This document shows, piece by piece, positions 3,001 to 59,629 of a stretch of 64,000 bases of DNA; within the stretch, counting starts at the first letter, position 1; each line of letters begins with the position of its first letter. The stretch is taken from the NCBI GenBank assembly GCA_002384055.1, contig DGAU01000003.1, positions 5,931-69,930 on the forward strand, given 5' to 3'. The position numbers were made by a program, and so were the translations under genes. The notes under the pieces are model-generated. The model did no database searches. It saw only the letters and a list, made by a program, of their open reading frames with translations, and was not told the DNA's origin. The stretch comes from Flavobacteriaceae bacterium UBA4022. GTDB taxonomy: Bacteria; Bacteroidota; Bacteroidia; Flavobacteriales; Flavobacteriaceae.

Positions 3001-3008
3001 AATTCTAA
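1..3008 (+). CDS. SusC/RagA-family TonB-dependent outer-membrane receptor (5' end cut by window edge)
   Basis: Frame 3 is open from nt 3 with no stop, so the 297 start in the track is an internal GTG. Upstream residues read ...FSYIGYATQEAAVNGQSTINVTLQEDAQALAEVIVIGYGT (carboxypeptidase-regulatory-like domain). Plug motifs follow (GKTAGVQI, IRIRG, PLFVVDGVP, ILKDASAAAIYGSRGANGVV), then a long beta-barrel ending RTFTFGFNAKF. A SusD-like gene starts 10 nt downstream. Confidence 0.9.
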   Translation, partial: GPVPGVNVVVDGTSIGAQTDFDGNYSVGNVANDATLVFSYIGYATQEAAVNGQSTINVTLQEDAQALAEVIVIGYGTTTVQDATGSVTAVTSEDFNQGVITSPEQLIQGKTAGVQISQSSGEPGAGIDIRIRGASSVRSNNNPLFVVDGVPLSGGSTSAETANTGIGSGAAKNPLSFINPNDIESISILKDASAAAIYGSRGANGVVFITTKSGKGAKGSSWDYSSSMSVASVAKTFDLLSADKYLSRSADFDFNVAERDFGSNTNWQDYIFRTSTSTNNDIAYSNNYGSGNLRATFGYNKNFGVVENSSLERITGRLNWNQRFLNDKLKIGVQSSFSRINDEGAATAASAGFRGDLLGAAYSANPTWPTGPDFDGTGGLLSPATMLDYYQNTANTNRMLVNVSAEYDLTSDLSAKVNIGLDQSESTRIGVSSPKARNFGAGSFGNGRGVLSDLNTNSELLEVTLNYNKEFGNSKLDLLAGYSYQSFQRDGRNVNGWGFFTENMDEMGDALENSANAVQAKITGDYQQYGFAGNTGGIFVNRLFPDVTTDLITDLNNLSVKSLFADTYDNTDELQSAFGRANYSLADKYLFTATVRMDGSSKFGEDSQYGTFPSGAFAWKMHNEDFVGDNISTLKLRVGAGITGNQEGLGYGNFTQRQRYAGGGPDDGGNINIPGIVDVSYPNPALKWEETLQLAAGLDFGFNDDRLNGSIDVYRKETSDLLFNVLAAQPSVQPFLFLNLPDSKIVNEGVELSLGYDLISSDDLTWNATFNVAYNKNMVEELSGEFDAGTIRGQGLSLAFAQKLKAGEPLFSYFLREFEGFDPATGQPIQTDVQDFVGKSALPNLTGGLSTSMNYKNWTVSTYFAGQFGHYIYNNTANAFFTAGAFRGGRNVTSDVLTAGESFDAAADVSTRFLESGDFIRMQNATVSYNWPVTGEAFFSSLVLSVTGQNLFVITDYSGLDPEVSSSPAGGDLLNGLPVFGIDYAGYPRPRTFTFGFNAKF

Positions 3009-3018
3009 AAAATTAATT

Positions 3019-4578
3019 ATGAAAAGAACCTTAATAAAATTGATGAAGCCTGTTCTAGCAACGGCGTTTCTATCCTTATTGACCGTTTCCTGTACTGATC
3101 TAGCCATTGAAGAGTCTGACTCTATTATCGCAGAAGGATCTACAGTATTCGAAGGCGTGGCTGATGTTGATGCATCAATCACTAACCTATACAACGACAC
3201 CTATGGACAACTTGGTGACCAAGGAAATTTCTTTGCCCTTAACGAAGTGTCCACAGACGAAACCTTAGTGCCTACTCGTGGGACTGACTGGGGGGATAAT
3301 GGTATCTGGCGTACGCTTCATGCGCACACCTGGAGTCCAACACACTCATTTGTCTTAGGTACTTGGAATAACTTAAATCAAAATGTTTTGAGAGCTTCTC
3401 AAATCATCGATCCTTTAAGTGCCCCAAGTGCAGAACAAGAAGCTCAAGCCCGTTTTTTACGTGCCTTCAGTATGTTCTTCGTTCTTGATATGTGGGGTGT
3501 AGCTCCATACCGTAATCCTACAGATGGATCAGATGTTAACCCATCTGTCTTGTCTTCTCTCGAGGCTTATGACTTTATCATCAATGACCTAACTGCAGCA
3601 CTACCTAACCTTCCTGTTGCAGGTCCTGGACCTACAGAAGAAGGTCATTCAAGAGCTAACCGCGCCGCGGGTAACTTCCTATTGGCCAAAGTTATGTTGA
3701 ATGCACAACGTTATACCGGTAGCGAGCCTAATTACCAAGGTGTTATCGATGCAGTTGATGCGATCAGTGCCGAAGGTTATGCTGCTCAAGCTGGTTATTT
3801 CGATATCTTCAAGCAAGATATTCCTGACACAGAAACGATTTGGTACGCCAAAGCTGGTGTTGGCAACCGTATCTGGAATGGTCTGCACTACAACCAAAAC
3901 TCTCCTGATAACTCAGGTGGAGGTTGGAATGGTTTCACAACCTTAGCTGAGTTTTATGACAGCTTCGAAGGTGGTGAAGACAATAGTGCCGGTGCTGGTC
4001 AAGAAGAGCGTCGTGGATATGTGCCAGGTGCTTCTGATTCAAACTCGGCAAACTTAGGTATCGGTTATGGTTTCTTGGTTGGACAACAGTACGAAGAGGA
4101 TGGAACAATCCTTAAAGACCGTACCGGTAATCCATTAGTATTCTCTAAGGAACTTCCAGGTTTATCTGGAAATGGTGAAAGCACTGGAATCCGTATCATC
4201 AAATATCACCCTGGTGATGATGGTGGATCTTTCCGTTCGCATGAAATCGTTTTCCGTTATGCTGATGCCCACTTGATGAAAGCTGAGGCCATGATGCGTA
4301 TGGGTGGTAATGCCACTCCTATGGTTAACACCCTTAGAACACTTCGCGGAGCTTCTCCACTTGGAAGTGTATCTGAAGCGGATATGTTAGCTGAGCGGGG
4401 ACGTGAGCTTTACGTTGAGTTCTGGAGAAGAAACGATATGGTTCGTTTTGGTCAATTTACTAGTGATTGGGAATTTAAAAACCCAGCTTCTGTAGGGGAC
4501 ACTAAATGGAACTTATTTCCAATTCCAGTTAACGCATTACTTTCAAATCCTAATTTGGTCCAAAACGCTGGTTACTAA
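3019..4578 (+). CDS. SusD/RagB-family nutrient-binding outer-membrane lipoprotein
   Basis: The ATG at 3019 gives MKRTLIKLMKPVLATAFLSLLTVSC (lipobox Cys). It lies directly downstream of SusC. The C-terminal region is SusD-like (EIVFRYADAHLMKAEA...RGRELYVEFWRRNDMVRFG...FPIP). The track start at 2911 overlaps SusC and lacks a signal peptide. Confidence 0.9.
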   Translation: MKRTLIKLMKPVLATAFLSLLTVSCTDLAIEESDSIIAEGSTVFEGVADVDASITNLYNDTYGQLGDQGNFFALNEVSTDETLVPTRGTDWGDNGIWRTLHAHTWSPTHSFVLGTWNNLNQNVLRASQIIDPLSAPSAEQEAQARFLRAFSMFFVLDMWGVAPYRNPTDGSDVNPSVLSSLEAYDFIINDLTAALPNLPVAGPGPTEEGHSRANRAAGNFLLAKVMLNAQRYTGSEPNYQGVIDAVDAISAEGYAAQAGYFDIFKQDIPDTETIWYAKAGVGNRIWNGLHYNQNSPDNSGGGWNGFTTLAEFYDSFEGGEDNSAGAGQEERRGYVPGASDSNSANLGIGYGFLVGQQYEEDGTILKDRTGNPLVFSKELPGLSGNGESTGIRIIKYHPGDDGGSFRSHEIVFRYADAHLMKAEAMMRMGGNATPMVNTLRTLRGASPLGSVSEADMLAERGRELYVEFWRRNDMVRFGQFTSDWEFKNPASVGDTKWNLFPIPVNALLSNPNLVQNAGY

Positions 4579-4600
4579 TCAGCTTTATGTGATAAATATA

Positions 4601-4634
4601 AAAGCCACCTCCTTTCGGAGGTGGCTTTTTTTTT
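4601..4634 (+). terminator. Rho-independent terminator after susD-like gene
   Basis: Perfect 9-bp stem gccacctcc (4604-4612) / ggaggtggc (4617-4625) with loop tttc, followed by a run of 9 T (4626-4634). Confidence 0.75.
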
Positions 4635-4726
4635 AACCTATTGTTAATCTTTTTAATTTATCAGTAAGGCTATTTAACGCGCTTTACCTCTATCTTCCCC
4701 TTACGGACAAACCTGTCTATTGGCCT

Positions 4727-7700
4727 ATGAATTTTCAAAATAAACCAACCACAATACACCTGATATGGCTGCTGCTCATATTATCAATGGGTTGTAAGCC
4801 AGACATCAAGCCATTTGCCTTACTGACATCCGAAAAAACAGGTATTAGTTTCACTAATACCCTCAGGACAGCACCCGAGCTTAACATACTCAACTACATC
4901 TATTATTACAACGGTGGTGGCGTTGCCACCGCAGACTTTAACAATGATGGACGACTTGACATTATATTCACCGCGAATCAAGCTCATCCAGAACTCTATC
5001 TGAACTTAGGGAAAATGCAGTTTTCTTCAGTGGCATTGAATCTCAATACAGATTTCTCCACGGGCTGGACAAATGGGGTAAGTATTGTAGATATCAATAA
5101 TGACGGATGGATGGACATCTATTTGTGCCGTGTAGGGGCTCATCCCCGACTCACCGGCCAGAACATGCTACTGGTTCATCAAGGACTAGACGCATCCGGT
5201 GACCCCATTTTTGAAGAAAAAGCCAAGGACTACGGGCTCGATTTCAAAGGCTACGGGACACAAGCTGCATTTTTTGATTATGACCTGGATGGTGATTTGG
5301 ATGTTTATTTATTGAATCACAGCATCAACCCAAATCAGAATTACGGCAAAGGCACTAAGCGCGAAACAGCCGACCACGTTTCAGGCGACAAACTATATGA
5401 AAATATCCAAGGGATCTTTGTCGATGTGACCCAAGCAATGGGCATCTTTCAAGGCAGTATTGGTTATGGCCTCGGTTTGAGTATCAGTGATTATAACCAC
5501 GATGGCTATCCTGATCTTTATATTGGCAATGACTTCTTCGAAAACGATTACCTCTACATCAACCAACAAGGGAATTCATTTAAGGAAGTAATTCACCAAA
5601 AGAACGAAAGTATCAGCCATACCACGCACTATTCTATGGGAAATGATAGTGGTGACATCAACAACGATGGGCACACAGATATTATTTCGGTTGATATGCT
5701 ACCAGAAGACCTGAGCACCTACAAGACTTCGGGAACCGAGTTTAACTACCAAATTTATGACCAATTCATTAAGAATGGTTATGGTTATCAATTCATGCAA
5801 AACACCTTGCAGCTCAATACCGGTCATGGCGCTTTTAGTGAGATTGGTTTTGCTGCTGGGGTTGCCGCGACAGAGTGGTCCTGGAGTCCATTGCTGGCCG
5901 ACTTTGATCAAGACGGGTATCAAGACCTCTATGTAACTAACGGGATTGTTGGGGCAACCAATGACATGGACTTCATCAATTTCGTGGCTAACGAAGAAAT
6001 TCAGAAACAACTCGGCGCTAACATGACAGGACAATCGATGAGCTTCATTGACCAAATTCCGACCAAACACTCCGCCAATTACATATTTCAAAATCATCAA
6101 GGACACTCCTTTGTAGATCGTGTTGGGCAATGGATACCTGAAACACCCAGTTATAGTAACGGTGCAGCCTATGGCGATTTTGACAATGATGGTGATTTAG
6201 ATTTGGTGGTCAACAATGTGAATGAACCCGCATTTATCTTAGAAAATCATATCGATCAAAGCCCCTCTGGCGCTCACTTCCTGAAGATTCGTTTCCAAGG
6301 CAGTACAAATAACATAAATGGAATCGGCACCCGAGTAACCGCTTACAACAAAGACGCTCAGTACACCAGAGAAAACTATACCTCGCGCGGCTATTTATCT
6401 GCTGTTGCCCCGGAACTGCACTTTGGTCTTGACACGATCAATAGCCTCGATTCTTTGGTCATCCAGTGGCCGGGCAACCGAGTTCAAACACTCTATAACG
6501 TGGCGGCCAACCAGTCCATTACCCTTTCATACGACGCATCCCAACCGCAATTAAGTGTGGCACCTAAGCCGTCATACTTGTTAGGGGTGCAGAAGGACCT
6601 AACGACTTACAAGCACAAAGAACAAGGTAGTCTCGATTTTAATCGTAATCCCCTCCTGCCCTATGCTTTAACGCACGAAGGGCCAGATCTCTGTGTGGCC
6701 GATCTTAATCAAGATCAATTGGCGGATATTATTTTCACTGGCGGCAAAGGCCAGGCATCCCAGATATGGCTTCAGCAGTCAGATGGTCAATTTACGTCAT
6801 CTTGGGCCGAATTAATGGCAGAACATGCCCTAAACGAAGACACAGCACTGGCGGCACTAGACGCAAACTTAGATGGGTTAATGGACCTGGTCATTGCCAG
6901 TGGTGGCAATGAATTTACTCAGGGGGATCCGCTCAAACCAAGACTTTACCTCAATAACGGAAATGGATTACAAAGTGCTTTTTGGGCTTTTGGAGATCTA
7001 GAATTGAGTGCGTCAAAAGTCACCGCGATTGATCTGAATCAGGACGGTGCCGAAGACCTCATTTTTACAGCAAAATATCACGCACAAGATTTTGGGCGGG
7101 ATCCACAACACTATATATTCTTTAATGATGCAAAAGGTAACTTTAGCGATGTAAGCCACACTTTTGGAAAAGGATTTATTCATTCTGGTGCCATCAGCGA
7201 CCTTATTGCCATAGACATCAATAACGACGATCAGATAGATTTGGTCACTTGTGGTCCTTGGAACACCATCAACATCTGGTTACAAAAAGACCAATCATTA
7301 GTGCGTGCTACCGATACAGGGCTCGAAATGGATTCCGGTCTATGGAATGCCTTGGCCGTTGCCGATTTCGACCTAGATGGCGATTTGGATTTAATGGCAG
7401 GGAACTGGGGGATTAATAGCCGCTGGACTGCCGATCAAAACACACCTCTTCGTCTTTATAAATACGACTTTGATCAAAATAAAACCGAAGAAACTTTAGT
7501 CACCTATGTCTATCAAGGCAAGGAAACCCCTATGGCTTCAAAAGAGGAATTGGCCAAGCAGATGCCCAAGATCAATAAGCAATTTTTGTCTTTTAAGGAT
7601 TTTGCCAATGCCACAGTAGATGTTATTTTTGGAGCGAAAAACCTAGAAAAAGGGCTGGTCAAAGAGGTGACCGAATTACGGTCTTGTTATTTTGAAAACA

Positions 7701-50490: not shown

Positions 50491-51438
50491 ATGAATTACC
50501 TGTCTCACAAACTTAATGAATATGGCTGGTTTGCCCTAAAGGTTTCGGCCTTGATTGCGGCTGTGGTCATTGTGGTTCTAAAATGGCGTGCTACAACATC
50601 TGAGGTGATCCAAATGAGTTTAAATGTCTTTACTCTTGAGGCGCTTCCATGGGGGTTGCTTATCGTTATTTTAGCAAGCTTCAATTGGATTCTGATCATT
50701 ATTCAATGGCAATACAGCACCAAAGACTTAGCGCCCTTAAATTTTGTGGCTGCGGCCAAACAATGCTTCATTGCTTTTAACTGGGCCTTTATTACGCCCA
50801 GCCGCATTGGAGAATACGGGGCAAAAGCCGCCTTTTACCCATCAGAGCAGCGGCCACAAATTATAGCGCTTCAGGCCTGTATCCATGGGACCCAGCTTAT
50901 CGCCACAATAATATTTGGGGGGGTTGGTGTTTTGATCAATTCAGCGGTATTTCCTGGGGTCAACTTGGACATAACGCCTTGGTCCATTGGCCTGTGTGCT
51001 GCTGGCTTTATGAGCCTGTTTTTCCTTTTTTTATGGGTCAAACAAAAGCAACATCTCCAGGTGCTTTTCCTTAAATCCTTGAGGGCACTCCCCAGGAGAA
51101 AAGTAGCTCATATAATGGGCCTCTCACTTTTGCGCTACATCATCTTTAGCTTCATGTTCTTAATGATTTTTCGCTTCCTTGGCGCTGAAATTTCTCTGCT
51201 TATGGGTCTTTCGACAATTGCCTGTATTTATTTGTTCCAGGCCATCATTCCTGTTTTCAGCATGTTTGACGTAGTCATTAGAGGAAGCATTGCCTTGGTT
51301 CTTTTTACCCCATACGGACTAGATTCGGTATTGATATTATCGGCCATTTGTCTACAATGGACACTGAGCGCCCTTTGGCCTTTAGCCTTGGGTAGTATTT
51401 GGCAGATGACCACTTTAAACAAGCGCACATGGGCCTGA
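50491..51438 (+). CDS. Flippase-like / LPG-synthase-TM-domain membrane protein
   Basis: 315 aa with about 8 TM helices. The SRIGEYGAKA motif resembles the lysylphosphatidylglycerol-synthase TM region family. Confidence 0.55.
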   Translation: MNYLSHKLNEYGWFALKVSALIAAVVIVVLKWRATTSEVIQMSLNVFTLEALPWGLLIVILASFNWILIIIQWQYSTKDLAPLNFVAAAKQCFIAFNWAFITPSRIGEYGAKAAFYPSEQRPQIIALQACIHGTQLIATIIFGGVGVLINSAVFPGVNLDITPWSIGLCAAGFMSLFFLFLWVKQKQHLQVLFLKSLRALPRRKVAHIMGLSLLRYIIFSFMFLMIFRFLGAEISLLMGLSTIACIYLFQAIIPVFSMFDVVIRGSIALVLFTPYGLDSVLILSAICLQWTLSALWPLALGSIWQMTTLNKRTWA

Positions 51439-51540
51439 TGAGTCTCTTAATGTTACTGCCATTTATCATGACTCTCGCTCTATTGAGTCCTTGGGGGCGC
51501 TATGTTTGGAAAGCAAGGCGCTTTTAATCGCCCCTTGATC

Positions 51541-52011
51541 TTACTTCAGGGCCAATTGAAACGCATAACTTATTTGAATGGGCAAGCCCCGTTTATACGC
51601 GGGACTCAGCTCCAAATTTTGCAAGTCCTTTTGACTATTTTGTTGAATGACGACAAAGGCAGGATGACGCTCTAATAATTCTGGGGCAAAGGCCAAAACA
51701 AGTTCCCCCTGGTTTGAGACCTCAATGGTTACAGCTATTGTATCCGGCCGCTCATTTTTAGAGAAAACAGCCCCCTGGTCTATTGCCTTTTGAACGGCCT
51801 GAGTGATTGTAGACAAAAAACAATGCTCCTGATTTTCTTTAATCAAAATAGAGGTGCAGGCATTAAATGAAGGGTAAGTATCTACCGTACGCCAATTAAT
51901 TTCTGCAAGCTCCAAAGCCAGTATATCTTGCGGATCAACACGTTCATTAATTAGATGATTACAGCCGTACACCACCATTAAAAACATCACCATGACTACA
52001 AAACGGAACAT
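51541..52011 (-). CDS. Hypothetical lipoprotein
   Basis: N-terminal MFRFVVMVMFLMVVYGC lipobox. No family recognised. Confidence 0.5.
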   Translation of the reverse strand: MFRFVVMVMFLMVVYGCNHLINERVDPQDILALELAEINWRTVDTYPSFNACTSILIKENQEHCFLSTITQAVQKAIDQGAVFSKNERPDTIAVTIEVSNQGELVLAFAPELLERHPAFVVIQQNSQKDLQNLELSPAYKRGLPIQISYAFQLALK

Positions 52012-52159
52012 ACCCCAAATATTTTTTGATAAAAAACTATTTTTTTTCAGATTCTATTATAATAGTCTTATTAATGACTATTTTTAAGGCTTATGTATAA
52101 ACGATATATTTATTTTTATTTTCGAGATAAAGTATACATGTCGACAAAAAAACTAAATT

Positions 52160-52354
52160 ATGAAGATTTTGGTGATTGAGGAAGATAAAATCGCACAATT
52201 ACCGAAATCCAATCAGGGTGCTTTTCTGAGCCAAAATGAATCCACTTTCCTTCAAAATCCTTGGTATGCAAATGGACAAATTAGCTTAGAGAGAATTTAC
52301 AAAGATGGGAAAGAGTTTTCGAAATCTTGGGATGAGGTAGGTAATGAAATTTAA
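52160..52354 (+). CDS. Short MORN-variant (YwqK-like) repeat fragment
   Basis: 64 aa. WYANGQISLERIYKDGKEFSKSWDEVGN matches about 1.5 MORN-variant repeats. It is far shorter than typical family members and lies in AT-rich sequence, so it is probably a remnant. Confidence 0.35.
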   Translation: MKILVIEEDKIAQLPKSNQGAFLSQNESTFLQNPWYANGQISLERIYKDGKEFSKSWDEVGNEI

Positions 52355-52435
52355 ATACATGCAATTATTTTTTATTCGGCCCCTTTTTAGGTCCAAAAAC
52401 TTGGCAACTTGACGAACTTGAGAAGAAACAACTTT

Positions 52436-52557
52436 AAACAAAAAAAGCCCATCCAAATGGATAAGCTTCTCATTGGTCTATTTCTAAACCACATCTCTGT
52501 TCTCACAGAGACAACACAACACTTTTGTTGCGGTCTGGACGAGACTCGAACTCGCGA
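52436..52557 (-). repeat. Direct repeat copy A: displaced tRNA-Asp 3' fragment (27 nt) plus 95-nt terminator region
   Basis: Manual alignment gives 122/122 identity to 57980-58101. Nt 52531-52557 equal the T-arm/acceptor 3' end of tRNA-Asp, and identity stops abruptly at 52558. Confidence 0.85.
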
Positions 52558-52584
52558 AATTAACTTGCTTTACGCCTACATGCA

Positions 52585-52797
52585 TTACCCTAGTATAATG
52601 GTAAGTGACATCCCTAGTACAAGAAAGCCAATAATAGCATCTGATATTTCATTTTCAGTGGAATTTTTATAATTCCAAACTTCCTTAAAGTAAGTTCTTT
52701 TCCTATTTTTAAGAAGGTTGTATATATTTAAATATATAAATCTTACTCCAGCTCCAATTAAGCAAAAAATATAATGCCTTAAAATTATTGATACCAT
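52585..52797 (-). CDS. Small two-TM membrane protein (islet cargo)
   Basis: 70 aa with hydrophobic segments at both ends (IFCLIGAGVRFIYL, AIIGFLVLGMSLTIILG). Very AT-rich. Lies downstream of the 151-aa gene on the same strand. Confidence 0.4.
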   Translation of the reverse strand: MVSIILRHYIFCLIGAGVRFIYLNIYNLLKNRKRTYFKEVWNYKNSTENEISDAIIGFLVLGMSLTIILG

Positions 52798-52842
52798 TAG
52801 TCCGATTTGCTAAAAAGTTCGGTTTTAAGGGAAGCTTACATA

Positions 52843-53298
52843 CTACCAATTAATAGAAAAAAACTGCTTTTTTTTTATCTTCTTTCTAATCTTTATAAAA
52901 CCAATAAGAATAAATAACGGAGTTGTAAAACAAAAGTTAAAAAAGTAGAGCAAAATACAATCAAATAGAATACCTGACAGTATATATTTTACTATATCCA
53001 ATCTAGTTCTAAATTCTTTTTTCTTAATTAAGTATTGCCCAACAGGGAGTAAATAATTTTTATACAAAGACAAACTTGTTTCAAGTGTAATTAAACCATT
53101 TATACTTTTAACAGATGTAAAATACTCAAGAATATATCTTTTAAAAAGCTCCGTTTCAGAGTTGTTTAAGGACAATAGGCCATTTGTTAAATTTATAGTA
53201 GAGCGATAATGATACAACCTTCTTTCTCTTGAACTCAGCTTATTTAAATTAAAAATAAATTTTTCAAGTTCGTTTTTAATGTTGTTATTCGTTTCCAT
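52843..53298 (-). CDS. Hypothetical protein: about 100-aa soluble N-domain plus two C-terminal TM helices (islet cargo)
   Basis: 151 aa. C-terminus YILSGILFDCILLYFFNFCFTTPLFILIGFIKIRKKIKKK. No family recognised. Confidence 0.5.
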   Translation of the reverse strand: METNNNIKNELEKFIFNLNKLSSRERRLYHYRSTINLTNGLLSLNNSETELFKRYILEYFTSVKSINGLITLETSLSLYKNYLLPVGQYLIKKKEFRTRLDIVKYILSGILFDCILLYFFNFCFTTPLFILIGFIKIRKKIKKKQFFSINW

Positions 53299-53485
53299 AT
53301 AATTTCATATTTAGAATTTTGAAAGAATATCATCATAGAATTCATAAATCATTATTAAAGTTTTTCCTGGATCAACATTAATACTAGTTGGAGGAGGAAA
53401 CTGGAAATTCATCAAAGAATTTTGATTCTTGGTAAAATAATAATGAACTTGATTACCATATCTATAATTTAATGTTGAAACCCCC

Positions 53486-53511
53486 CGCTGCCGCGCGATT
53501 GTATCGCGTGG
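53486..53511. repeat. REP-like hairpin, left inverted repeat
   Basis: cgctgccgcgcgattgtatcgcgtgg. The internal palindrome is gcgcgat-tgt-atcgcg(t). Confidence 0.7.
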
Positions 53512-53581
53512 CTATTATTTTAGTAACTTCACCTTAAATATCTCCCCTCTAAAATAGCAAAATTAAAGCTACTGATAGAGT

Positions 53582-53686
53582 ATGAGTCGCAATTACAAAT
53601 TCCACAACCCTGAAGGTCTCTATTTCGTTAGCTTTGCCGTAGTGGAATGGCTGGATGGGATTATGGTGTTTCAGTACTTGGGGTGA
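53582..53686 (+). pseudogene. Truncated REP-associated tyrosine transposase (RAYT / IS200-like Y1) N-terminal remnant
   Basis: MSRNYKFHNPEGLYFVSFAVVEWLD matches the characteristic N-terminus of Bacteroidetes RAYT-type transposases (from memory: MSRxYKFHxxxGxYFVSFAxxxWIDVFTR...). After WLD it reads GIMVFQYLG-stop, so the HUH and Tyr motifs are absent. Confidence 0.6.
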
Positions 53687-53702
53687 TTCGGCAAAACTGT
53701 TA

Positions 53703-53728
53703 CCACGCGATGCAATCGCGCGGGAGCG
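53703..53728. repeat. REP-like hairpin, right inverted repeat
   Basis: ccacgcgatgcaatcgcgcgggagcg. This is the reverse complement of the left repeat with 2 mismatches. Confidence 0.7.
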
Positions 53729-53796
53729 TATGTAGACATCAAGAATGTCTACGCCTCACTGCTCACGCCTCACCCTTCACTGCGCCGAAGGCGCAT

Positions 53797-53925
53797 CCCC
53801 AAACAAAAAAAGCCCTTCCATCAGGAAAAGCTTCTCATTGGTCTATTACTAAACCACTTGCAGCATTTAAGCTGCCAACACAACATCTTTGTTGCGGTCT
53901 GGACGAGACTCTAGAACTGCGCCCA
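53797..53925 (-). repeat. Direct repeat copy B: diverged tRNA-Asp 3' fragment plus terminator region
   Basis: Aligns to 57976-58106. It has blocks of identity (ccccaaacaaaaaaagccc, aagcttctcattggtctatt, gttgcggtctggacgagactc) and roughly 80 percent identity overall by eye. Hairpin changes are compensatory, and the tRNA part is degenerate (ctctagaactgcgccc). Confidence 0.75.
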
Positions 53926-53948
53926 AACCCTTTATTTATAAGTGTTTA

Positions 53949-55313
53949 TTATTGCTTTACAAGCTTCTTAACTACCTGATGGTTCTCTATTTGTATCTCT
54001 ACAAGGTATATTCCTGACTGAAAGTTTTTGATTGGGATTTGGTCAAAGTCTTCCTCAACTTGCATTAAAATTTTACCTGACGCTCCCATTATTTTTACAT
54101 GACTGATTGGATAGATTGATTCAATCCTAAAGCTATCTTCCACAGGATTTGGAACAAGCTTAACTTTTTCAGTAATATAGGTATCTACATTTAGAATGGT
54201 TAGATTTTCATACCATGCAACTTTATCGTCATTTTGAGACCCTGAAATAACATCAAGATCGCCATCATTATCCAAGTCCCCAACTTTCACATCGTAAGGT
54301 GTTATTGAGCTCGTGGATATTATTTTTTGACTTGAAAATGTGCCATTACCATCTAAATTCTCATACCAAGCAACTTTACTATCTCCTACTGACACAGAAA
54401 GCACATCCATATCTAAGTCATTATCAAGGTCAGCCGCAATAACTGCAAGAGCAAATTCAGCCTCTAATGTAATAACCTGTTCAGAACCAAAGTTACCTTT
54501 ACCGTCCAAGTTCTCAAACCATGCAATTTTATTTGGGCCATTAGATGCTGTCAACACATCATAATCAAGATCCCCATCCAAGTCTACACTATATACCTTT
54601 GCCACTGTAGATGCACTCCCAGCTATAATCTGCCTTGCTCCAAAGTTACCTAACCCATCCAAGTTCTTATACCAGGCAACCGTAAAGTTCCCTGAAGAGG
54701 AAGCTACAATATCCAAGAAATCATCTCCATCAAGATCTACAGCCACAACCGAACGGTTATTGGTGGCTTGTGTTTCAATAAGTCTTGCAGGCCCAAAATT
54801 CCCTTGCCCATCTATGTTTTCAAACCATGACAAACCTGAAAAGTCCGCAGCGCAAACTATATCCATGTCATCATCCCCGTCAAGGTCTTCAACATACAAA
54901 CCAAGTGCCCCGTCAATTTGTGTGGCAATAGTAATTTTAGGCAAAAAGTTTCCAGTACCATCATTTTCGAACCAAACGATTCTATCATCAGCATAATTTG
55001 ACGAAACAATGTCTATGTCGTCATCTTCATCCATATCACCACCTGTGATAAAATAAGTTTGATTTACTTCACCTATGAATTGAGGGCTTGAGAAATTACC
55101 ATCACCTAGGTTACGACACCATGTCACAGAACTGGATAGCCTGTTTGCAGTTGCCACATCCAACAAATCATCCCCATCCAAATCAGCAACAAAAACCTGT
55201 CGGCATCCATTTGCTTCTGTAGTGATTATTTGTTCTACTCCAAACTGTGACCATAATGGAAAAGCAACCAAAAGGAATAAGATTTTTACAATATAACAAT
55301 ACATTTTACTCAT
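53949..55313 (-). CDS. Seven-bladed FG-GAP/VCBS beta-propeller protein with T9SS C-terminal sorting domain
   Basis: Signal peptide. Seven repeats of DLDGDxxxDhh...W(F/Y)EN(L)DGxGNF. C-terminal Por-secretion tail LVPNPVEDSFRIES...IKNFQSGIYLVEIQIENHQVVKKLVKQ. Confidence 0.85.
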   Translation of the reverse strand: MSKMYCYIVKILFLLVAFPLWSQFGVEQIITTEANGCRQVFVADLDGDDLLDVATANRLSSSVTWCRNLGDGNFSSPQFIGEVNQTYFITGGDMDEDDDIDIVSSNYADDRIVWFENDGTGNFLPKITIATQIDGALGLYVEDLDGDDDMDIVCAADFSGLSWFENIDGQGNFGPARLIETQATNNRSVVAVDLDGDDFLDIVASSSGNFTVAWYKNLDGLGNFGARQIIAGSASTVAKVYSVDLDGDLDYDVLTASNGPNKIAWFENLDGKGNFGSEQVITLEAEFALAVIAADLDNDLDMDVLSVSVGDSKVAWYENLDGNGTFSSQKIISTSSITPYDVKVGDLDNDGDLDVISGSQNDDKVAWYENLTILNVDTYITEKVKLVPNPVEDSFRIESIYPISHVKIMGASGKILMQVEEDFDQIPIKNFQSGIYLVEIQIENHQVVKKLVKQ

Positions 55314-55639
55314 TAATTCCCATTTTTTTGAATCACACTTTGTTGCTGTGTCCCGTCCTCAAAATTTTTATCAATAACATATAATCCAGGATTCAGATCG
55401 TCAATTAGGTTTGGATTGTTAATCTGTGTTGAATCTTGTGACAAGATAGTAACATTTGTATTGAAAACGCCATCGTTAAACTGTGTTATACTTCCAAATG
55501 AAGCAGATTTATTAAAATTATCATAGCACATTCGATTACCTATGTCATCCAATTGAGCAATGTATATGGAGGAAGGAAGCACTGCAGGAAGGAAAATAAT
55601 ATTCCAATGTTCAATAGAAATTAAAGGCCTGTAGTTATA
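55313..55639 (-). pseudogene. Orphan C-terminal gene fragment (possible T9SS-tail remnant), no ATG
   Basis: The stop-to-stop frame is open from 55639 and contains only a GTG start at 55582. It ends ...LNPGLYVIDKNFEDGTQQQSVIQKNGN, loosely like a T9SS C-terminal domain. It abuts the divergent acyltransferase gene. Confidence 0.35.
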
Positions 55640-55671
55640 TTAGCAAATTCTATAATATAGAGACATATATT

Positions 55672-57588
55672 ATGTTGAATTTTCAAGTGGAATCCAAAGA
55701 ATATCGTCCTGAGCTAAATGGTCTGAGAGCTTTAGCTGTATTACTTGTATTATTATATCACTTAGATTTTTATTGGATACAAGGTGGGTTTTTGGGAGTT
55801 GATGTGTTTTTGGTTATTTCGGGTTATTTTATAAGTAGAAATATTCTTTTTGATTTACAACATAATGAATTTTTTATAAAAGAATTTTATACCAAGCGGC
55901 TTAGAAGGCTTTTTCCTGCATTAATTACCACCGTTTTTTTGGTTCTAATTGCTGGGTATTTTATGCTCACTCCATTCTCTTATGAAAGGTTAGGTTTGTC
56001 ATCTCTTTATTCTGCAATATCTGGGTCAAACTTTTTCTTTTGGAGTGAAGCAGGTTATTTCGATGAAGAGGTTTATTACAAGCCATTACTTCATATGTGG
56101 TCTCTTTCTATTGAGGAACAGTTCTATTTGATTTGGCCATTTCTGTTAGTTTTTATTTTTAAAAAAATTAAAAAATCAATAGGTATAGTTGTCCTAATAG
56201 GAATTGTCGCCTCAGTTTTAACTGCTGAATTCTTCTATACATTGGATCCGTCGGCAGTATTTTTCCTATTGCCTTTTAGAATGTTCGAGTTTTGGCTAGG
56301 AACGTTATGTATAGGACTTGAAAATATCAAACTTTTTAATCAAACTAGATTTAGGGAAGTTTTCTTCAGTTTAGGCTTATTCTTAATAATTACGTCTTCA
56401 TTTTTATTCGATGGTCAAAATAGAATGCCTGGGTTACTTTCTTTAATACCCTGTTTTGGAACAATACTCATAATTATAGGAGGTAAATCAAAATTAACAA
56501 GCTGGGCACTAAAGAATAAGTCAATGGAGTATATTGGAAAAGCTTCCTATTCAATTTACTTAATTCACTGGCCTTTGATAGTATATTTTAAGTACCAAAA
56601 TCTTAATGAGCTTCTGTTATTTGAGAAAGCCTATATAGCATTAGTATCTATATTACTAGGCTTCATAATGTGGAAGTCTATTGAGAATACATTTAGGAAT
56701 CCAAGGCAAAAGTATAAAAGATGGGACCCTGTATGGTTTGGTGTCCCAATTTTGATTTTGTTAGTTGGTGGAATTTCACTTTTTGTAAAAGTGAAAGATG
56801 GACTTCCATCAAGATTCCATGGAAATTTATACATGACAAGAGAGGAGATTTTGGAAATTCGTAAATCTTATTGGCAAGATTCTAATTCTGAAGACAAGAT
56901 ATTAAACGGGGAACATGGAAAGGGTCATATAATTATGTTAGGTAATTCACATGCAATTGATTTGATTTATGCACTTCGATTAAATGGATTTAAAGGTAAA
57001 ATAACATCGCTTCAAACAGGTGGAAAGTGCTACAATTTCGGTTCTGCGGAAAAGGTGGAAGATGTGGATTTTTGCAGTGAAAAGAAACAGTTAAATTTCT
57101 CTAATAAAAATTGGAATAAAGTAGATGCCATTTATATGCATGATGATTGGCCTAAATGGGAAGAGTATAGCTTTCGTAAAATTATTAAGGAAGTTAGGGA
57201 ATTATCCAAAGCCCCCATCTATGTATTTGGACCAAAAATTATTTTTAAGAAACCAATTCCAGATATTGTCCATCAAAGCAATTCCGCAATTCCTAAAATC
57301 ATCAATTCGAACGCTATGAGTTATTCTGAAATAGAATTGAAGAAAGAAATTAATTCTTTATTAAGAAACGAGTTTAAGGTCAATTCATACTATAAAGAAA
57401 ACAATATTCAGTATATAGATTTATTAAGTGTTCAGGGAGGTGCAAATTTTAATCAATTTGAAGTAGTATCCAAGGAGGGTCTAGAGTTCCTATATTTTGA
57501 TGCGGGGCATTTAACAAAGAGAGGGGCGAAAGAATTGGGTGTTAAACTCAAAGAAAAACATCCTGAGTTGTTCAAGGTAAAGGGTTAA
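55672..57588 (+). CDS. Acyltransferase-3 (OafA/YrhL-like) membrane O-acyltransferase with C-terminal SGNH-like domain
   Basis: N-terminus RPELNGLRALAVLLVLLYH plus FLGVDVFLVISGY, about 10 TM helices, then a soluble domain with GNSHAIDL and DAGHLT motifs. Confidence 0.85.
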   Translation: MLNFQVESKEYRPELNGLRALAVLLVLLYHLDFYWIQGGFLGVDVFLVISGYFISRNILFDLQHNEFFIKEFYTKRLRRLFPALITTVFLVLIAGYFMLTPFSYERLGLSSLYSAISGSNFFFWSEAGYFDEEVYYKPLLHMWSLSIEEQFYLIWPFLLVFIFKKIKKSIGIVVLIGIVASVLTAEFFYTLDPSAVFFLLPFRMFEFWLGTLCIGLENIKLFNQTRFREVFFSLGLFLIITSSFLFDGQNRMPGLLSLIPCFGTILIIIGGKSKLTSWALKNKSMEYIGKASYSIYLIHWPLIVYFKYQNLNELLLFEKAYIALVSILLGFIMWKSIENTFRNPRQKYKRWDPVWFGVPILILLVGGISLFVKVKDGLPSRFHGNLYMTREEILEIRKSYWQDSNSEDKILNGEHGKGHIIMLGNSHAIDLIYALRLNGFKGKITSLQTGGKCYNFGSAEKVEDVDFCSEKKQLNFSNKNWNKVDAIYMHDDWPKWEEYSFRKIIKEVRELSKAPIYVFGPKIIFKKPIPDIVHQSNSAIPKIINSNAMSYSEIELKKEINSLLRNEFKVNSYYKENNIQYIDLLSVQGGANFNQFEVVSKEGLEFLYFDAGHLTKRGAKELGVKLKEKHPELFKVKG

Positions 57589-57670
57589 GGTATTGTAGTC
57601 GAAAATTCGATGTTGAAATCAGTTGTTATATTGATTGGGTAAAATTGGAAGAAAATGAATTAAAGATATC

Positions 57671-57704
57671 AAAATTTTTGTCCAATTTAATGGACAATTT
57701 TATT
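57671..57704. terminator. Weak AT-rich hairpin between convergent islet genes
   Basis: 7-bp stem ttgtcca (57778 is not meant; coordinates are 57678-57684) / tggacaa (57691-57697), flanked by an A-run and a T-run. Confidence 0.3.
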
Positions 57705-57726
57705 ATCAATATTTGCTACTTAAACT

Positions 57727-57915
57727 TTAATTCTTAACAATTCTTAATGTGCGAAATTCATTTACAGGGGAAGATATAAAGTAAATGCCATTTGAAAAAC
57801 CTTCAAGATTTACGGAATTGCAGCAGTCTTTGGAAGAAAGTAATAGACGCAACAATATTCTACCATTAACATCGGTAATTAATATATTATTATTTTCTAA
57901 CTCATTTGTTGTCAC
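57727..57915 (-). pseudogene. Orphan T9SS C-terminal sorting-domain fragment
   Basis: The 62-aa ORF consists only of a Por-secretion-tail-like segment (ITDVNGRILLR...VNLEGFSNGIYFISSPVNEFRTLRIVKN), with no signal peptide or passenger domain upstream. Confidence 0.45.
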
Positions 57916-57979
57916 TAGGTAGAAGGAGAGCAGAATATGTCTTCCCTAAAACAGGGTATTTCGCAGTAGGAATTACCCC

Positions 57980-58101
57980 AAACAAAAAAAGCCCATCCAA
58001 ATGGATAAGCTTCTCATTGGTCTATTTCTAAACCACATCTCTGTTCTCACAGAGACAACACAACACTTTTGTTGCGGTCTGGACGAGACTCGAACTCGCG
58101 A
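57980..58101 (-). repeat. Direct repeat copy C: 3' 27 nt of intact tRNA-Asp plus its 95-nt terminator region
   Basis: Identical to 52436-52557. On the minus strand it contains the hairpins cucugu-gaga-acagag and gcuuaucc-auuu-ggaugggc (two G-U pairs), followed by a U7 run. Confidence 0.85.
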
Positions 58102-58148
58102 CCCCCTGCGTGACAGGCAGGTATTCTAACCAACTGAACTACCAGACC
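58075..58148 (-). tRNA. tRNA-Asp (anticodon GTC)
   Basis: Reverse complement GGTCTGGTAGTTCAGTTGGTTAGAATACCTGCCTGTCACGCAGGGGGTCGCGAGTTCGAGTCTCGTCCAGACCG. Acceptor GGTCTGG/CCAGACC, anticodon stem CCTGC/GCAGG with loop CT-GTC-AC, and T-loop TTCGAGT. 74 nt, no encoded CCA. Confidence 0.9.
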
Positions 58149-58275
58149 AATATACCAATCTACAAAATAGAGTTTCACGACAGTGAAAATTAAGGCTATT
58201 GTTACTCATTTGAGCGGTGGCAAATATACACCTCATTTTTATTTTCACAAACAAATTAACCAAAAAATGAACGCA

Positions 58276-59205
58276 TCAGGCAAACTTCTGTCGTGCGACC
58301 AAAAAACGCGTAAACACAGGGGCGAAACCCATGTTAATATCCGCCGGCACATACTGAATCTTGTACTGGGCACATGTTAATTCTATGGCCTTAAAATATT
58401 CAGTTATCGATTGATTATAGGCCTGTTTGATTTGATGCGGATAGACCTGTACGACTTGCCCCGTTTCTACATCCTTGAATTTTCTTGGCCGTTGATCAAA
58501 ATCGAAAGAGACCTCACTCACCCCATCGTAGACATGCATCAATATAACCTGATGATTTTTGAATTTCAAATGTTGTAAGGCATCAAATATGGCCTGAGAA
58601 TCGGGAGCATTTTGCAGCATATCACTAAAAACAACCACTAAAGAGCGTTTTGGTAGTTGTTGTGCCAGCTGATTAAGGTATTGGGCTGTTTGGGTCCTGT
58701 CAGCCACAGGCGTCGGGACTAAGGCGTCACTCAGATATTGCAAGAGCTGTTGATGATGGCGCTCGCTAGATTTATCTCGCGTATGTTGGTGAATTTTCGC
58801 CCCGTAAATGCTCAATCCAACCGCGTCACGCTGTTTTTTGGCCATATGCATTAAAGCCGCACAACCCAATACGGAAAATTCGATTTTATTGAGCTTATCC
58901 AAGCTCAATTTGCCCATGCTAGGATAATGCATGCTGCTGCTGGCATCCAAAACCAGGTGGCACCTGAGATTGGTTTCCTCCTCGAATCGTTTGGTGTATA
59001 ATTTTTCTGTTTTGGCAAATAACTTCCAATCAATAAACCGGGTACTCTCTCCCGAATTATAGCTTTTGTGTTCTGCGAATTCAGCAGAAAAACCATGAAA
59101 AGGACTTTTGTGCAATCCCGAGATAAAACCTTCCACGACTTGATGCGCCAAAAGCGCCAAGTTTTGGAATTGCTGGATATCGGATTTACTGCTCAGTAAA
59201 GACAT
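58276..59205 (-). CDS. DUF58 domain protein (vWA-like, MoxR-associated family)
   Basis: HGFSAEFAEHKSYNSGESTRFIDWKLFAKTEKLYTKRFEEETNL followed by VLDASSSM is the typical DUF58 core. Confidence 0.8.
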   Translation of the reverse strand: MSLLSSKSDIQQFQNLALLAHQVVEGFISGLHKSPFHGFSAEFAEHKSYNSGESTRFIDWKLFAKTEKLYTKRFEEETNLRCHLVLDASSSMHYPSMGKLSLDKLNKIEFSVLGCAALMHMAKKQRDAVGLSIYGAKIHQHTRDKSSERHHQQLLQYLSDALVPTPVADRTQTAQYLNQLAQQLPKRSLVVVFSDMLQNAPDSQAIFDALQHLKFKNHQVILMHVYDGVSEVSFDFDQRPRKFKDVETGQVVQVYPHQIKQAYNQSITEYFKAIELTCAQYKIQYVPADINMGFAPVFTRFLVARQKFA

Positions 59206-59260
59206 GGATTAGCTCTAGTAAAGTCAAGGGGAAAAGACCTTTATTGTATATCATATAGAC

Positions 59261-59290
59261 AAAAAAAGACCCTCATGTGAGCGTCTTCCT
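59261..59290 (-). terminator. Terminator downstream of trxA
   Basis: Minus-strand hairpin aagac-g-cuc-acau-gag-g-gucuu followed by a U7 run, 22 nt after the trxA stop. Confidence 0.6.
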
Positions 59291-59311
59291 TTTTTAAAAT
59301 CAATTGGGCTC

Positions 59312-59629
59312 CTACAAAAGGGCGTCTAAAGCCTCTGCATAAACATTCTTAGGCGCCACACCTACTTGGCGACCTACCAACTCTCCTTGATTGAAGATCA
59401 AAACTGTTGGGATGTTACGAACACCATATTTTGCAGCAAATTCCTGATTGGCATCGACATCTAATTTTCCGATGACTGCTTTGCCTTCATATTCATTACT
59501 CAAGTCATCGATAATCGGTCCCACCATACGGCAAGGGCCGCACCACGCTGCCCAAAAGTCAACCATAACTGGTTTGTCACTTTTGAGTACTGTTTCCTCG
59601 AAAGAGGCATCTGTAATTTCTAAAGCCAT
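59312..59629 (-). CDS. trxA: Thioredoxin
   Basis: 105 aa with FWAAWCGPCR active site and canonical thioredoxin length. Confidence 0.9.
   Translation of the reverse strand: MALEITDASFEETVLKSDKPVMVDFWAAWCGPCRMVGPIIDDLSNEYEGKAVIGKLDVDANQEFAAKYGVRNIPTVLIFNQGELVGRQVGVAPKNVYAEALDALL

Follow-up and report, generated by a model that had tools for sequence, protein, structure and literature searches.

A strain-variable islet at tRNA-Asp of a marine flavobacterium, probably composed of two stacked integrative-element remnants without an integrase

Results

The stretch of DNA analysed here, hereafter called the window, comprises 64,000 nt of contig DGAU01000003.1 (positions 5,931 to 69,930; assembly GCA_002384055.1) of Flavobacteriaceae bacterium UBA4022. 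Downstream of its tRNA-Asp(GTC) gene lies an islet of 5.4 kb that carries three copies of the tRNA 3' end and that is present in some members of the population and absent from others. In our reading this region is probably a strain-variable islet at a tRNA-Asp hot spot, formed by two stacked, decayed remnants of integrative elements that lack an integrase. As such it is an ordinary kind of genomic islet, documented unusually well.

Identical outer repeats and a diverged middle copy

The islet is bounded by two direct repeats (Table 1) that are identical at 122 of 122 positions and cannot be extended by one base on either side. A preliminary description, made from the letters of the window, had claimed this perfect repeat in the same orientation, and re-comparison proved the claim exact. 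The right-hand, tRNA-proximal copy consists of tRNA positions 47-73, i.e. two variable-loop bases, the T-arm, the 3' acceptor strand and the discriminator, together with the next 95 nt (hereafter the trailer), which close with a 13-pair terminator hairpin and a T-run. Since both ARAGORN and Rfam find an intact tRNA on the minus strand (58074/58075-58148), the earlier account of this copy as the last 27 nt of tRNA-Asp plus 95 nt with a terminator stands. The left-hand, distal copy is the same segment with the 5' two-thirds of the tRNA absent, in agreement with its earlier description as a displaced tRNA 3' fragment with terminator. The start of identity, which had been placed exactly at the 5' side of the T-stem, was found 2 nt further 5', at tRNA position 47.

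When 20-mers of the repeat were searched in the window, the only matches outside the two outer copies fell on a third, diverged copy at 53801-53924, which had been overlooked in the preliminary description. All copies are derived from tRNA-Asp and none belongs to a dispersed repeat family, an alternative that had been considered at the outset. The middle copy is identical to the host copy at 93 of 113 aligned positions (~82%), the longest exact stretch being ~24 nt. Its tRNA 3' end (GAGTCTCGTCCAGACCGCA) is exact and the 5' half of its T-stem is degenerate; the differences are concentrated in two hairpins, where base pairing is kept by compensatory changes. In another lineage (L034/L037/L038) the native tRNA-Asp trailer has 93% identity to the trailer of the middle copy and contains the same hairpin GGCAGCTTAAATGCTGC. 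Judged from its sequence, the middle copy is a putative relic attachment (att) site, and it splits the islet into segment II (53925-57979, 4.1 kb) and segment I (52558-53800, 1.2 kb). As its trailer matches the native trailer of another lineage, the incoming DNA appears to have carried a chromosomal copy of the tRNA end plus trailer from that lineage. The preliminary description had guessed that the incoming DNA already contained such a copy; the chromosomal origin is supported by the middle copy, but this copy is of the other lineage's type, whereas the guess concerned the outer repeat.

Occupied, empty and alternative states among close siblings

Contigs were gathered via identical copies of the flanking proteins in public assemblies (marine and brackish metagenomes, and one metagenome-assembled genome (MAG), GCA_001438125.1). 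The 24 longest-contig blocks were read per look-up, and the states described are those among the matches listed. Three states of the locus were found, whose flanks are all more than 99.6% identical, with 1-18 mismatches to the window in 5 kb of flanking sequence. State A is the arrangement of the window with all three copies and was seen in at least 12 independent assemblies (ENA, JGI, NCBI). State B contains the full tRNA-Asp and one trailer, followed by AAAGTTGTTTCTTCTCAA..., and equals the window minus exactly 5,544 nt (L017-L021, L045, L046). It is the empty site for which a search had been proposed, with tRNA-Asp and a single trailer running into the flank on the 52435 side; the AAAG flank joined to the distal copy in the window is the same as at these empty sites. 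In state C (L013-L016, L039-L042, L044, L047, L048), the trailer is followed by genes for a PAS/GAF histidine kinase of 826 aa, an H-NOX-type (HNOB) protein of 181 aa and a response regulator of 135 aa. Some samples, such as JGI 3300002145, ENA ERZ887839 and ERZ23492397, contain both the occupied and the empty state.

The islet genes are missing from most siblings. They are also absent from L011, the representative of a related species (82% amino acid identity in DUF58), which has the state C operon and a type IX secretion system (T9SS) gene. The enclosed genes thus do not form a conserved backbone common to all relatives, an outcome that would have spoken for another origin. As a rough measure of prevalence, the 151-aa protein of the islet was found in 56 collection blocks and the protein of the distal flank in 252.

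Two linked single nucleotide polymorphisms (SNPs) in the neighbouring DUF58 gene separate the states: window positions 58908/58880 read T/A in every state A contig and C/G in every state B or C contig. The empty sites are therefore real haplotypes and not a product of assembler collapse, and state A looks like one haplotype. One contig in state B, L018, resembles state A almost everywhere else, a pattern that suggests either recombination near the locus or an immediate ancestor. In 12 genomes with state A only 3 SNP sites were found in the 5.67-kb islet compared with about 10 in 3.9 kb of upstream flank, i.e. the SNP density of the islet is about five-fold below that of the flanks. Neither segment I nor segment II was seen on its own among the matches listed, and since no intermediate states were seen, the composite probably entered the population in one step. 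It would have arrived as a single unit of 5,544 nt in an empty-site genome.

These data bear on a different kind of explanation, namely an ancestral tandem tRNA-Asp array with later insertions, or an artefact of MAG assembly. Tandem tRNA gene arrays with repeated spacers occur in many bacteria, the window is taken from a metagenome-type assembly, and one sibling contig (L008) ends inside the repeat. Against this, the three-copy structure recurs in at least 12 independent assemblies, the empty sites bear their own linked SNPs, every tRNA fragment misses exactly the 5' two-thirds, the middle copy has the trailer type of another lineage, and no sampled related lineage has more than one intact tRNA-Asp at the locus. 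We regard this explanation as effectively refuted.

State B is itself scarred. The 64-aa open reading frame (ORF) outside the islet is chimeric: its first 14 codons match the N-terminus of the state C response regulator and are fused to unrelated DNA, and the 238 nt between the trailer T-run and window position 52202 in state B are unrelated to state C. The site has thus been remodelled repeatedly. Labelling the foreign sequence in the 64-aa ORF 'MORN-like' was considered and rejected, as no family match supported it.

A conserved trailer explains the length of the repeat

States B and C have the trailer (~94-95 nt) behind tRNA-Asp, as do L011 and the distant lineages L032 and L034-L038, which were found in a metagenome scan and whose neighbouring genes show ~70% DNA identity to the window. 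In an alignment of eight trailer variants, a variable hairpin has compensatory changes on both sides in 4 of 5 pairs, the hairpin UGGUUUAGAAAUAGACCA is invariant, and the terminator contains one covarying pair. The trailer is native backbone, a conserved structured RNA that belongs to the tRNA-Asp transcription unit, and it may represent an undescribed small RNA that is co-transcribed with tRNA-Asp. The tRNA was the sole match when 51000-59500 was scanned with Rfam at E<=1, and no family covered the trailer.

The repeat is long because the conserved trailer is part of the tRNA transcription unit and the repeat reaches the end of that unit. The simplest reason for the 95-nt extension would be that whatever lies downstream of a crossover in the T-arm has to be supplied anew by the integrating DNA. 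The displaced copies lie directly behind cargo genes in the same orientation, and from their sequence they could act as terminators for these genes.

Cargo and composition of the islet

Across most of 52600-53400 and 55200-57800 the GC content is 0.25-0.33 compared with 0.42-0.50 (about 0.45) in the flanks, which bears out the patchy low GC noted earlier; a local, host-like peak of ~0.45 covers the transposase relic and the middle copy. The earlier mention of gene fragments, a relic of a repetitive extragenic palindromic sequence and its associated tyrosine transposase (REP/RAYT) and accessory genes also held up, as the islet contains a T9SS gene fragment, a Y1_Tnp relic, an AT3-SGNH O-acetyltransferase gene and an FG-GAP/T9SS gene (Table 1). 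Scans with Pfam and PHROGs found no integrase, excisionase or intact transposase among the islet ORFs, as had been stated, and no replication gene.

Segment II begins with the truncated T9SS fragment, 25-65 nt after the proximal trailer. The closest non-self homologue of the AT3-SGNH protein is 60% identical and occurs in unrelated contexts; in the search for a donor two such contexts were inspected and neither had tRNA-Asp or the trailer. In some islet-bearing siblings (L001, L027) one of the islet SNPs, a G-to-T change at window position 57386, causes a premature stop (571 instead of 638 aa), which suggests that this cargo is starting to decay. The adjacent 89-aa small ORF had no family match. 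The FG-GAP gene contains at least 4-5 internal repeats of 153 nt (51 aa; repeat families D2, D4 and D6) that are 65-75% identical to each other.

The transposase relic is too short for Pfam and NCBIfam, in which it had no match, and its identity was settled by tblastn against plasmids and pairwise alignment. It is enclosed by GC-rich inverted repeats (CGCTGCCGCGCGATTGTATCGCGTGG / CCACGCGATGCAATCGCGCGGGAGCG), and further GC-rich palindromic sequence extends up to the middle copy. What is left is an N-terminal relic without an intact Y1 transposase and hence not a REP/RAYT system; it is cargo debris, not the agent of the 122-nt repeat. In segment I, a protein identical to that of the 151-aa ORF occurs only in islet-bearing contigs. 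To judge from the predicted proteins, an O-antigen-acetylase-like enzyme and a secreted FG-GAP protein, the cargo suggests that the islet alters the cell surface.

Table 1 Features of the tRNA-Asp locus in the window and of related junctions
Feature	Position	Strand	Evidence or remark
tRNA-Asp(GTC), intact, presumed integration target	58074..58148	-	ARAGORN; Rfam RF00005, 67.9 bits
tRNA-proximal repeat copy: tRNA 47-73 and 95-nt trailer with terminator, then GGGGTAAT	57980..58101	-	Terminator hairpin 58015-57986
Native tRNA-Asp 3' trailer: variable hairpin, invariant hairpin UGGUUUAGAAAUAGACCA, terminator	57980..58073	-	
T9SS C-terminal sorting domain gene fragment, 5'-truncated, tRNA-proximal end of segment II	57727..57915	-	Por_Secre_tail, partial, E=4.5e-5; in-frame stops upstream
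AT3-SGNH O-acetyltransferase (OafA / O-antigen-acetylase-like), cargo	55672..57588	+	Pfam Acyl_transf_3 and SGNH; PHROG 6705 'O-antigen acetylase', E=1.6e-127
Small ORF, 89 aa from GTG (72 aa as called in sibling contigs), directly upstream of FG-GAP gene	55313..55582	-	ORF list
FG-GAP repeat surface protein with T9SS sorting domain, cargo	53949..55313	-	FG-GAP_3, E=6.7e-49; Por_Secre_tail, E=1.7e-9
Middle diverged copy: degenerate T-stem, tRNA 3' end, foreign-type trailer, then GGGG	53801..53924 (about)	-	Terminator 53836-53807
Middle-type trailer: ACAAAGATG...GGCAGCTTAAATGCTGC, then GGGGATGCGCC on segment I side			
Two REP-like 26-nt inverted repeats around the Y1 (RAYT-type) relic	53486..53728	.	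Inverted repeat I2, 92% complementary
IS200-like Y1 transposase relic, 33 codons then stop	53582-53683	+	13/23 residues identical to Y1_Tnp N-terminus
151-aa ORF, segment I, GC ~25%	52843..53298	-	ORF list; no family match
70-aa ORF, last of segment I, reads into distal copy and terminator	52585..52797	-	ORF list; no family match
Distal repeat copy, displaced tRNA-Asp 3' fragment and trailer	52436..52557	-	Terminator 52471-52442
Older scar outside the islet: 64-aa chimeric ORF 52160-52354, then 80 nt filler	52160..52435	+	
156-aa conserved flank gene, distal side	51541..52011	-	Identical protein in states A, B and C
DUF58 gene, conserved flank, with islet-linked SNPs 58908 and 58880	58276..59205	-	Pfam DUF58
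attL order: tRNA, trailer, then GGGGTAATTCC			
attR order: GCAAGTTAATT, TCGCGAG..., trailer, then AAAGTTG			
attB order: tRNA, trailer, then AAAGTTG			

Further differences among the siblings were seen in the flanks. A gene for a 372-aa GT2 glycosyltransferase at ~51440-51540, between the 315-aa and 156-aa genes, is present or absent among near-identical siblings independently of the tRNA-Asp state (L013-L016, L021, L039-L042); the window lacks this gene, and L029 has a 58-aa ORF there. The length of the ribosomal protein S16 gene product varies between 196, 209 and 235 aa (L001-L010, ~2900-3610), and one TARA contig has a tandem duplication of the DUF6252 gene that lies upstream of dnaE (L047, 932-3146).

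Related units and mobile elements at the same boundary

Displaced copies recur in other lineages. In L033, a T9SS gene is followed by a tRNA fragment starting at GCGAGTTCGAG, i.e. in the T-stem, by a trailer and, 850 nt further on, by a second partial trailer. In L032, a single gene separates tRNA-Asp and its trailer from a second copy, whose T-arm is decayed. The breakpoints of the left and middle copies of the window, of the L033 fragment and of the decayed L032 copy all lie at the T-stem. Taken together, five small units of 0.7-4 kb were found in three lineages (segments I and II of the window, one unit in L032 and two in L033), each ending in a T-arm/trailer copy. The sampled related lineages have at most one intact tRNA-Asp at the locus.

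Larger elements share this boundary. The trailer GTTT of L036 (contig Ga0208013_1000016) and L053 (contig SRR17347030_1595061) is immediately followed by the start of a large mobile element, with tandem GTGCGGTAAT repeats at the junction. This element encodes an HTH_17 excisionase-like protein, a 309-aa Rep-like protein, whose family one source labels as replication initiation factor, and defence proteins. The truncated T9SS gene at the proximal trailer of the window fits a deleted proximal mobility module, which in L036 and L053 occupies this position. The same gene module adjoins a 435-aa tyrosine integrase in L049-L052, where no tRNA lies beside it. The element abutting the trailer is larger than 21 kb (L036 oriented 2310-5630, L053, L058), and its defence cargo consists either of a 1992-aa DEAD/MZB helicase, an nSTAND3 helicase and two GmrSD genes or of a type I restriction-modification system and Fic. 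Scans of viral contigs matched neither the junction of tRNA end and trailer nor the conserved block of the trailer, so there is no evidence for a phage attP of this type. A 17-nt likeness of the start of segment II to the native flank of L034 (CCTACTGC...) was dropped, as a remnant of a histidine kinase C-terminus was not convincing.

The small units could also be read as integrase-less cassettes, that is, small circles with one to three genes and one T-arm-plus-trailer site, captured in satellite- or integron-like fashion by a recombinase encoded elsewhere. The five units with their T-arm/trailer ends carry no relic of a mobility gene, their cargo genes read into the trailer terminator, and in L036 and L053 large elements that encode excisionase-like proteins adjoin this trailer boundary, all of which agrees with this explanation. 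However, the units are very few, and in two of the five distal copies all or part of the T-arm is missing. The truncated gene at the start of segment II resembles a deletion scar, and neither circular forms, nor a recombinase, nor a conserved motif on the cassette side were found. We therefore consider such cassettes improbable. Equally doubtful is the broader idea that the T-arm plus structured trailer is a portable recombination-and-termination module of marine Flavobacteriaceae, with cassettes shuffled by a trans-acting recombinase from the large defence-carrying elements and the trailer being an undescribed small RNA.

Discussion

Origin of the islet

The locus combines breakpoints clustered at the T-stem, a regenerated tRNA, a tandem arrangement with a diverged inner copy and a boundary shared with mobile elements. 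These are hallmarks of integrase islands, and decayed integrative elements are therefore the favoured explanation. Among the attP classes in Islander, that of the T-stem region is the most frequent, with 1,836 of 3,919 islands (PMC4383910). Tandem integration at tRNA genes, where newer elements push older ones inward and leave partial tRNAs as separators as well as degenerate remnants, has been described for tycheposons (10.1101/2020.12.28.424599), and sequential insertion at tRNA sites likewise for additive flexible genomic islands (PMC3698932).

According to this explanation, site-specific recombination at the tRNA-Asp T-arm would have let each element in, together with its own tRNA 3' end, the whole trailer and the terminator, and would thereby have restored the tRNA-trailer transcription unit. 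Each time, the 3' end present before would have been displaced to the far side, giving rise to the proximal copy, the older, foreign-type middle copy and the distal copy, which would be the original one of the host. The mobility genes would since have been deleted, leaving the surface cargo, the gene fragments and the transposase relic. Lacking an integrase of its own, the islet would now be moved or lost by homologous recombination via the 122-nt repeats or the flanking core genes, and the same process would keep the two outer copies identical, either by gene conversion between them or by cycles of RecA-dependent pop-out and re-entry among siblings.

Several observations weigh against decayed integrative elements. 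Neither the islet nor 20 other mid-size ORFs of the window nor ~45 sibling contexts yielded an integrase. For a tyrosine integrase, the 95 nt of identity past the tRNA are superfluous, and identity at all 122 positions would equally be expected of a RecA-mediated Campbell insertion or of gene conversion. If large elements had decayed, one would also rather expect some trace of integrase, excisionase or replication genes in the five small cassettes from three lineages, and there is none. Over the 21.5 kb for which the L053/L058 element was followed, defence genes were all that came up; neither an integrase nor a distal att site was reached. Finally, in sensitive blastn and tblastx comparisons with the elements in L036, L049 and L053, the islet matched them in the trailer and, possibly, a GGGGTAAT motif, but nowhere else.

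Part of this evidence favours homologous recombination alone, in which circular or linear DNA carrying the 122-nt host segment was inserted in Campbell fashion by RecA and a site-specific recombinase never took part. Such an origin would account for outer copies that are identical even over the 95 nt unneeded by an integrase, and for the lack of an integrase gene in the islet and the 20 other window ORFs scanned. The repeats are long enough for RecA-dependent deletion, the product of which equals the empty site, and the near-identity of the empty-site contig L018 to the islet haplotypes suggests exchange near the locus. On the other hand, recombination by RecA alone does not account for the initial joining of foreign DNA to a tRNA fragment that starts at the T-stem, it leaves the T-stem breaks of independent copies (window, L033, L032) unexplained, and the middle copy, with its limited identity and short exact stretches, is a poor RecA substrate. 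As the origin of the islet it is thus unlikely, although less so than the cassettes considered above, and it is better seen as the route by which the islet spreads or is lost. For the identity of the outer copies over the 95 nt, homologous recombination seems the best explanation also if the elements themselves were integrated by an integrase.

Comparison with known systems

The islet resembles the tRNA islands collected by Islander (PMC4383910) in its regenerated tRNA, the displaced 3' fragment forming a direct repeat at the far end, the T-stem breakpoint, tandem copies, foreign composition, accessory cargo and the precise empty attB site in siblings. It differs in having no integrase gene of its own, which Islander requires as a filter, in a repeat of 122 nt that reaches the end of the 95-nt trailer instead of the ~40 nt typical of tRNA islands, and in the very small size of its units (1.2 and 4.1 kb).

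The mechanism by which remnants of this kind arise is said to be known from the ICESt3/CIME work in Streptococcus thermophilus. Cis-mobilizable elements (CIMEs) are att-flanked remnants derived from integrative and conjugative elements (ICEs) or integrative and mobilizable elements (IMEs) without recombination and transfer genes (PMC5704250, PMC6323972). In the islet, recognised here by its sequence, we find the same combination: att-type direct repeats, no integrase or excisionase, an internal relic att site as expected from accretion, and a site that is also used by larger mobile elements (L036, L053). Unlike for CIMEs, no cognate ICE or IME with a demonstrated integrase for the att site was found, and the host is a marine flavobacterium and not a Firmicute.

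Tycheposons (10.1101/2020.12.28.424599) also occur in marine plankton and share with the islet successive tRNA integrations, partial tRNAs as separators, remnants, and sub-populations that differ by small gene sets. They are, however, defined by their own tyrosine recombinase and replication modules, neither of which is present in the islet, and belong to another phylum (Prochlorococcus). The additive flexible islands of Alteromonas (PMC3698932) are alike in sequential site-specific insertion, in variable content within a clonal frame and in surface cargo, but they form a descriptive class without a defined mechanism, to which the islet adds att anatomy at the nucleotide level and population states. 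Integron cassette arrays depend on intI, attI and attC, whereas the islet has no integrase and its repeated unit is the T-arm of tRNA-Asp with the trailer, not attC.

The preliminary description had regarded two features as unusual, the absence of any integrase, excisionase or transposase and a repeat much longer than its tRNA part. Both are present, yet they are less unusual than claimed: att-flanked remnants without an integrase are known, as are tandem arrays, and the trailer explains the length. What remains out of the ordinary is this trailer-dependent repeat length, the complete record of occupied, empty and alternative states, and a hint of recurrent integrase-less units.

Implications

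The islet would escape island finders, such as Islander, for which an integrase gene is a precondition. The trailer RNA and the recurring small integrase-less units are modest leads that could outdo the islet itself in interest; if a portable T-arm-plus-trailer module did exist, it would be a tRNA-based analogue of an integron or satellite system. For the organism, the three hot-spot states recovered from public metagenomes mean that cells of an uncultured marine flavobacterium with more than 99.6% identity differ in surface genes, and a change of the cell surface, as the cargo suggests, is the usual theme of strain-variable islands in marine bacteria.

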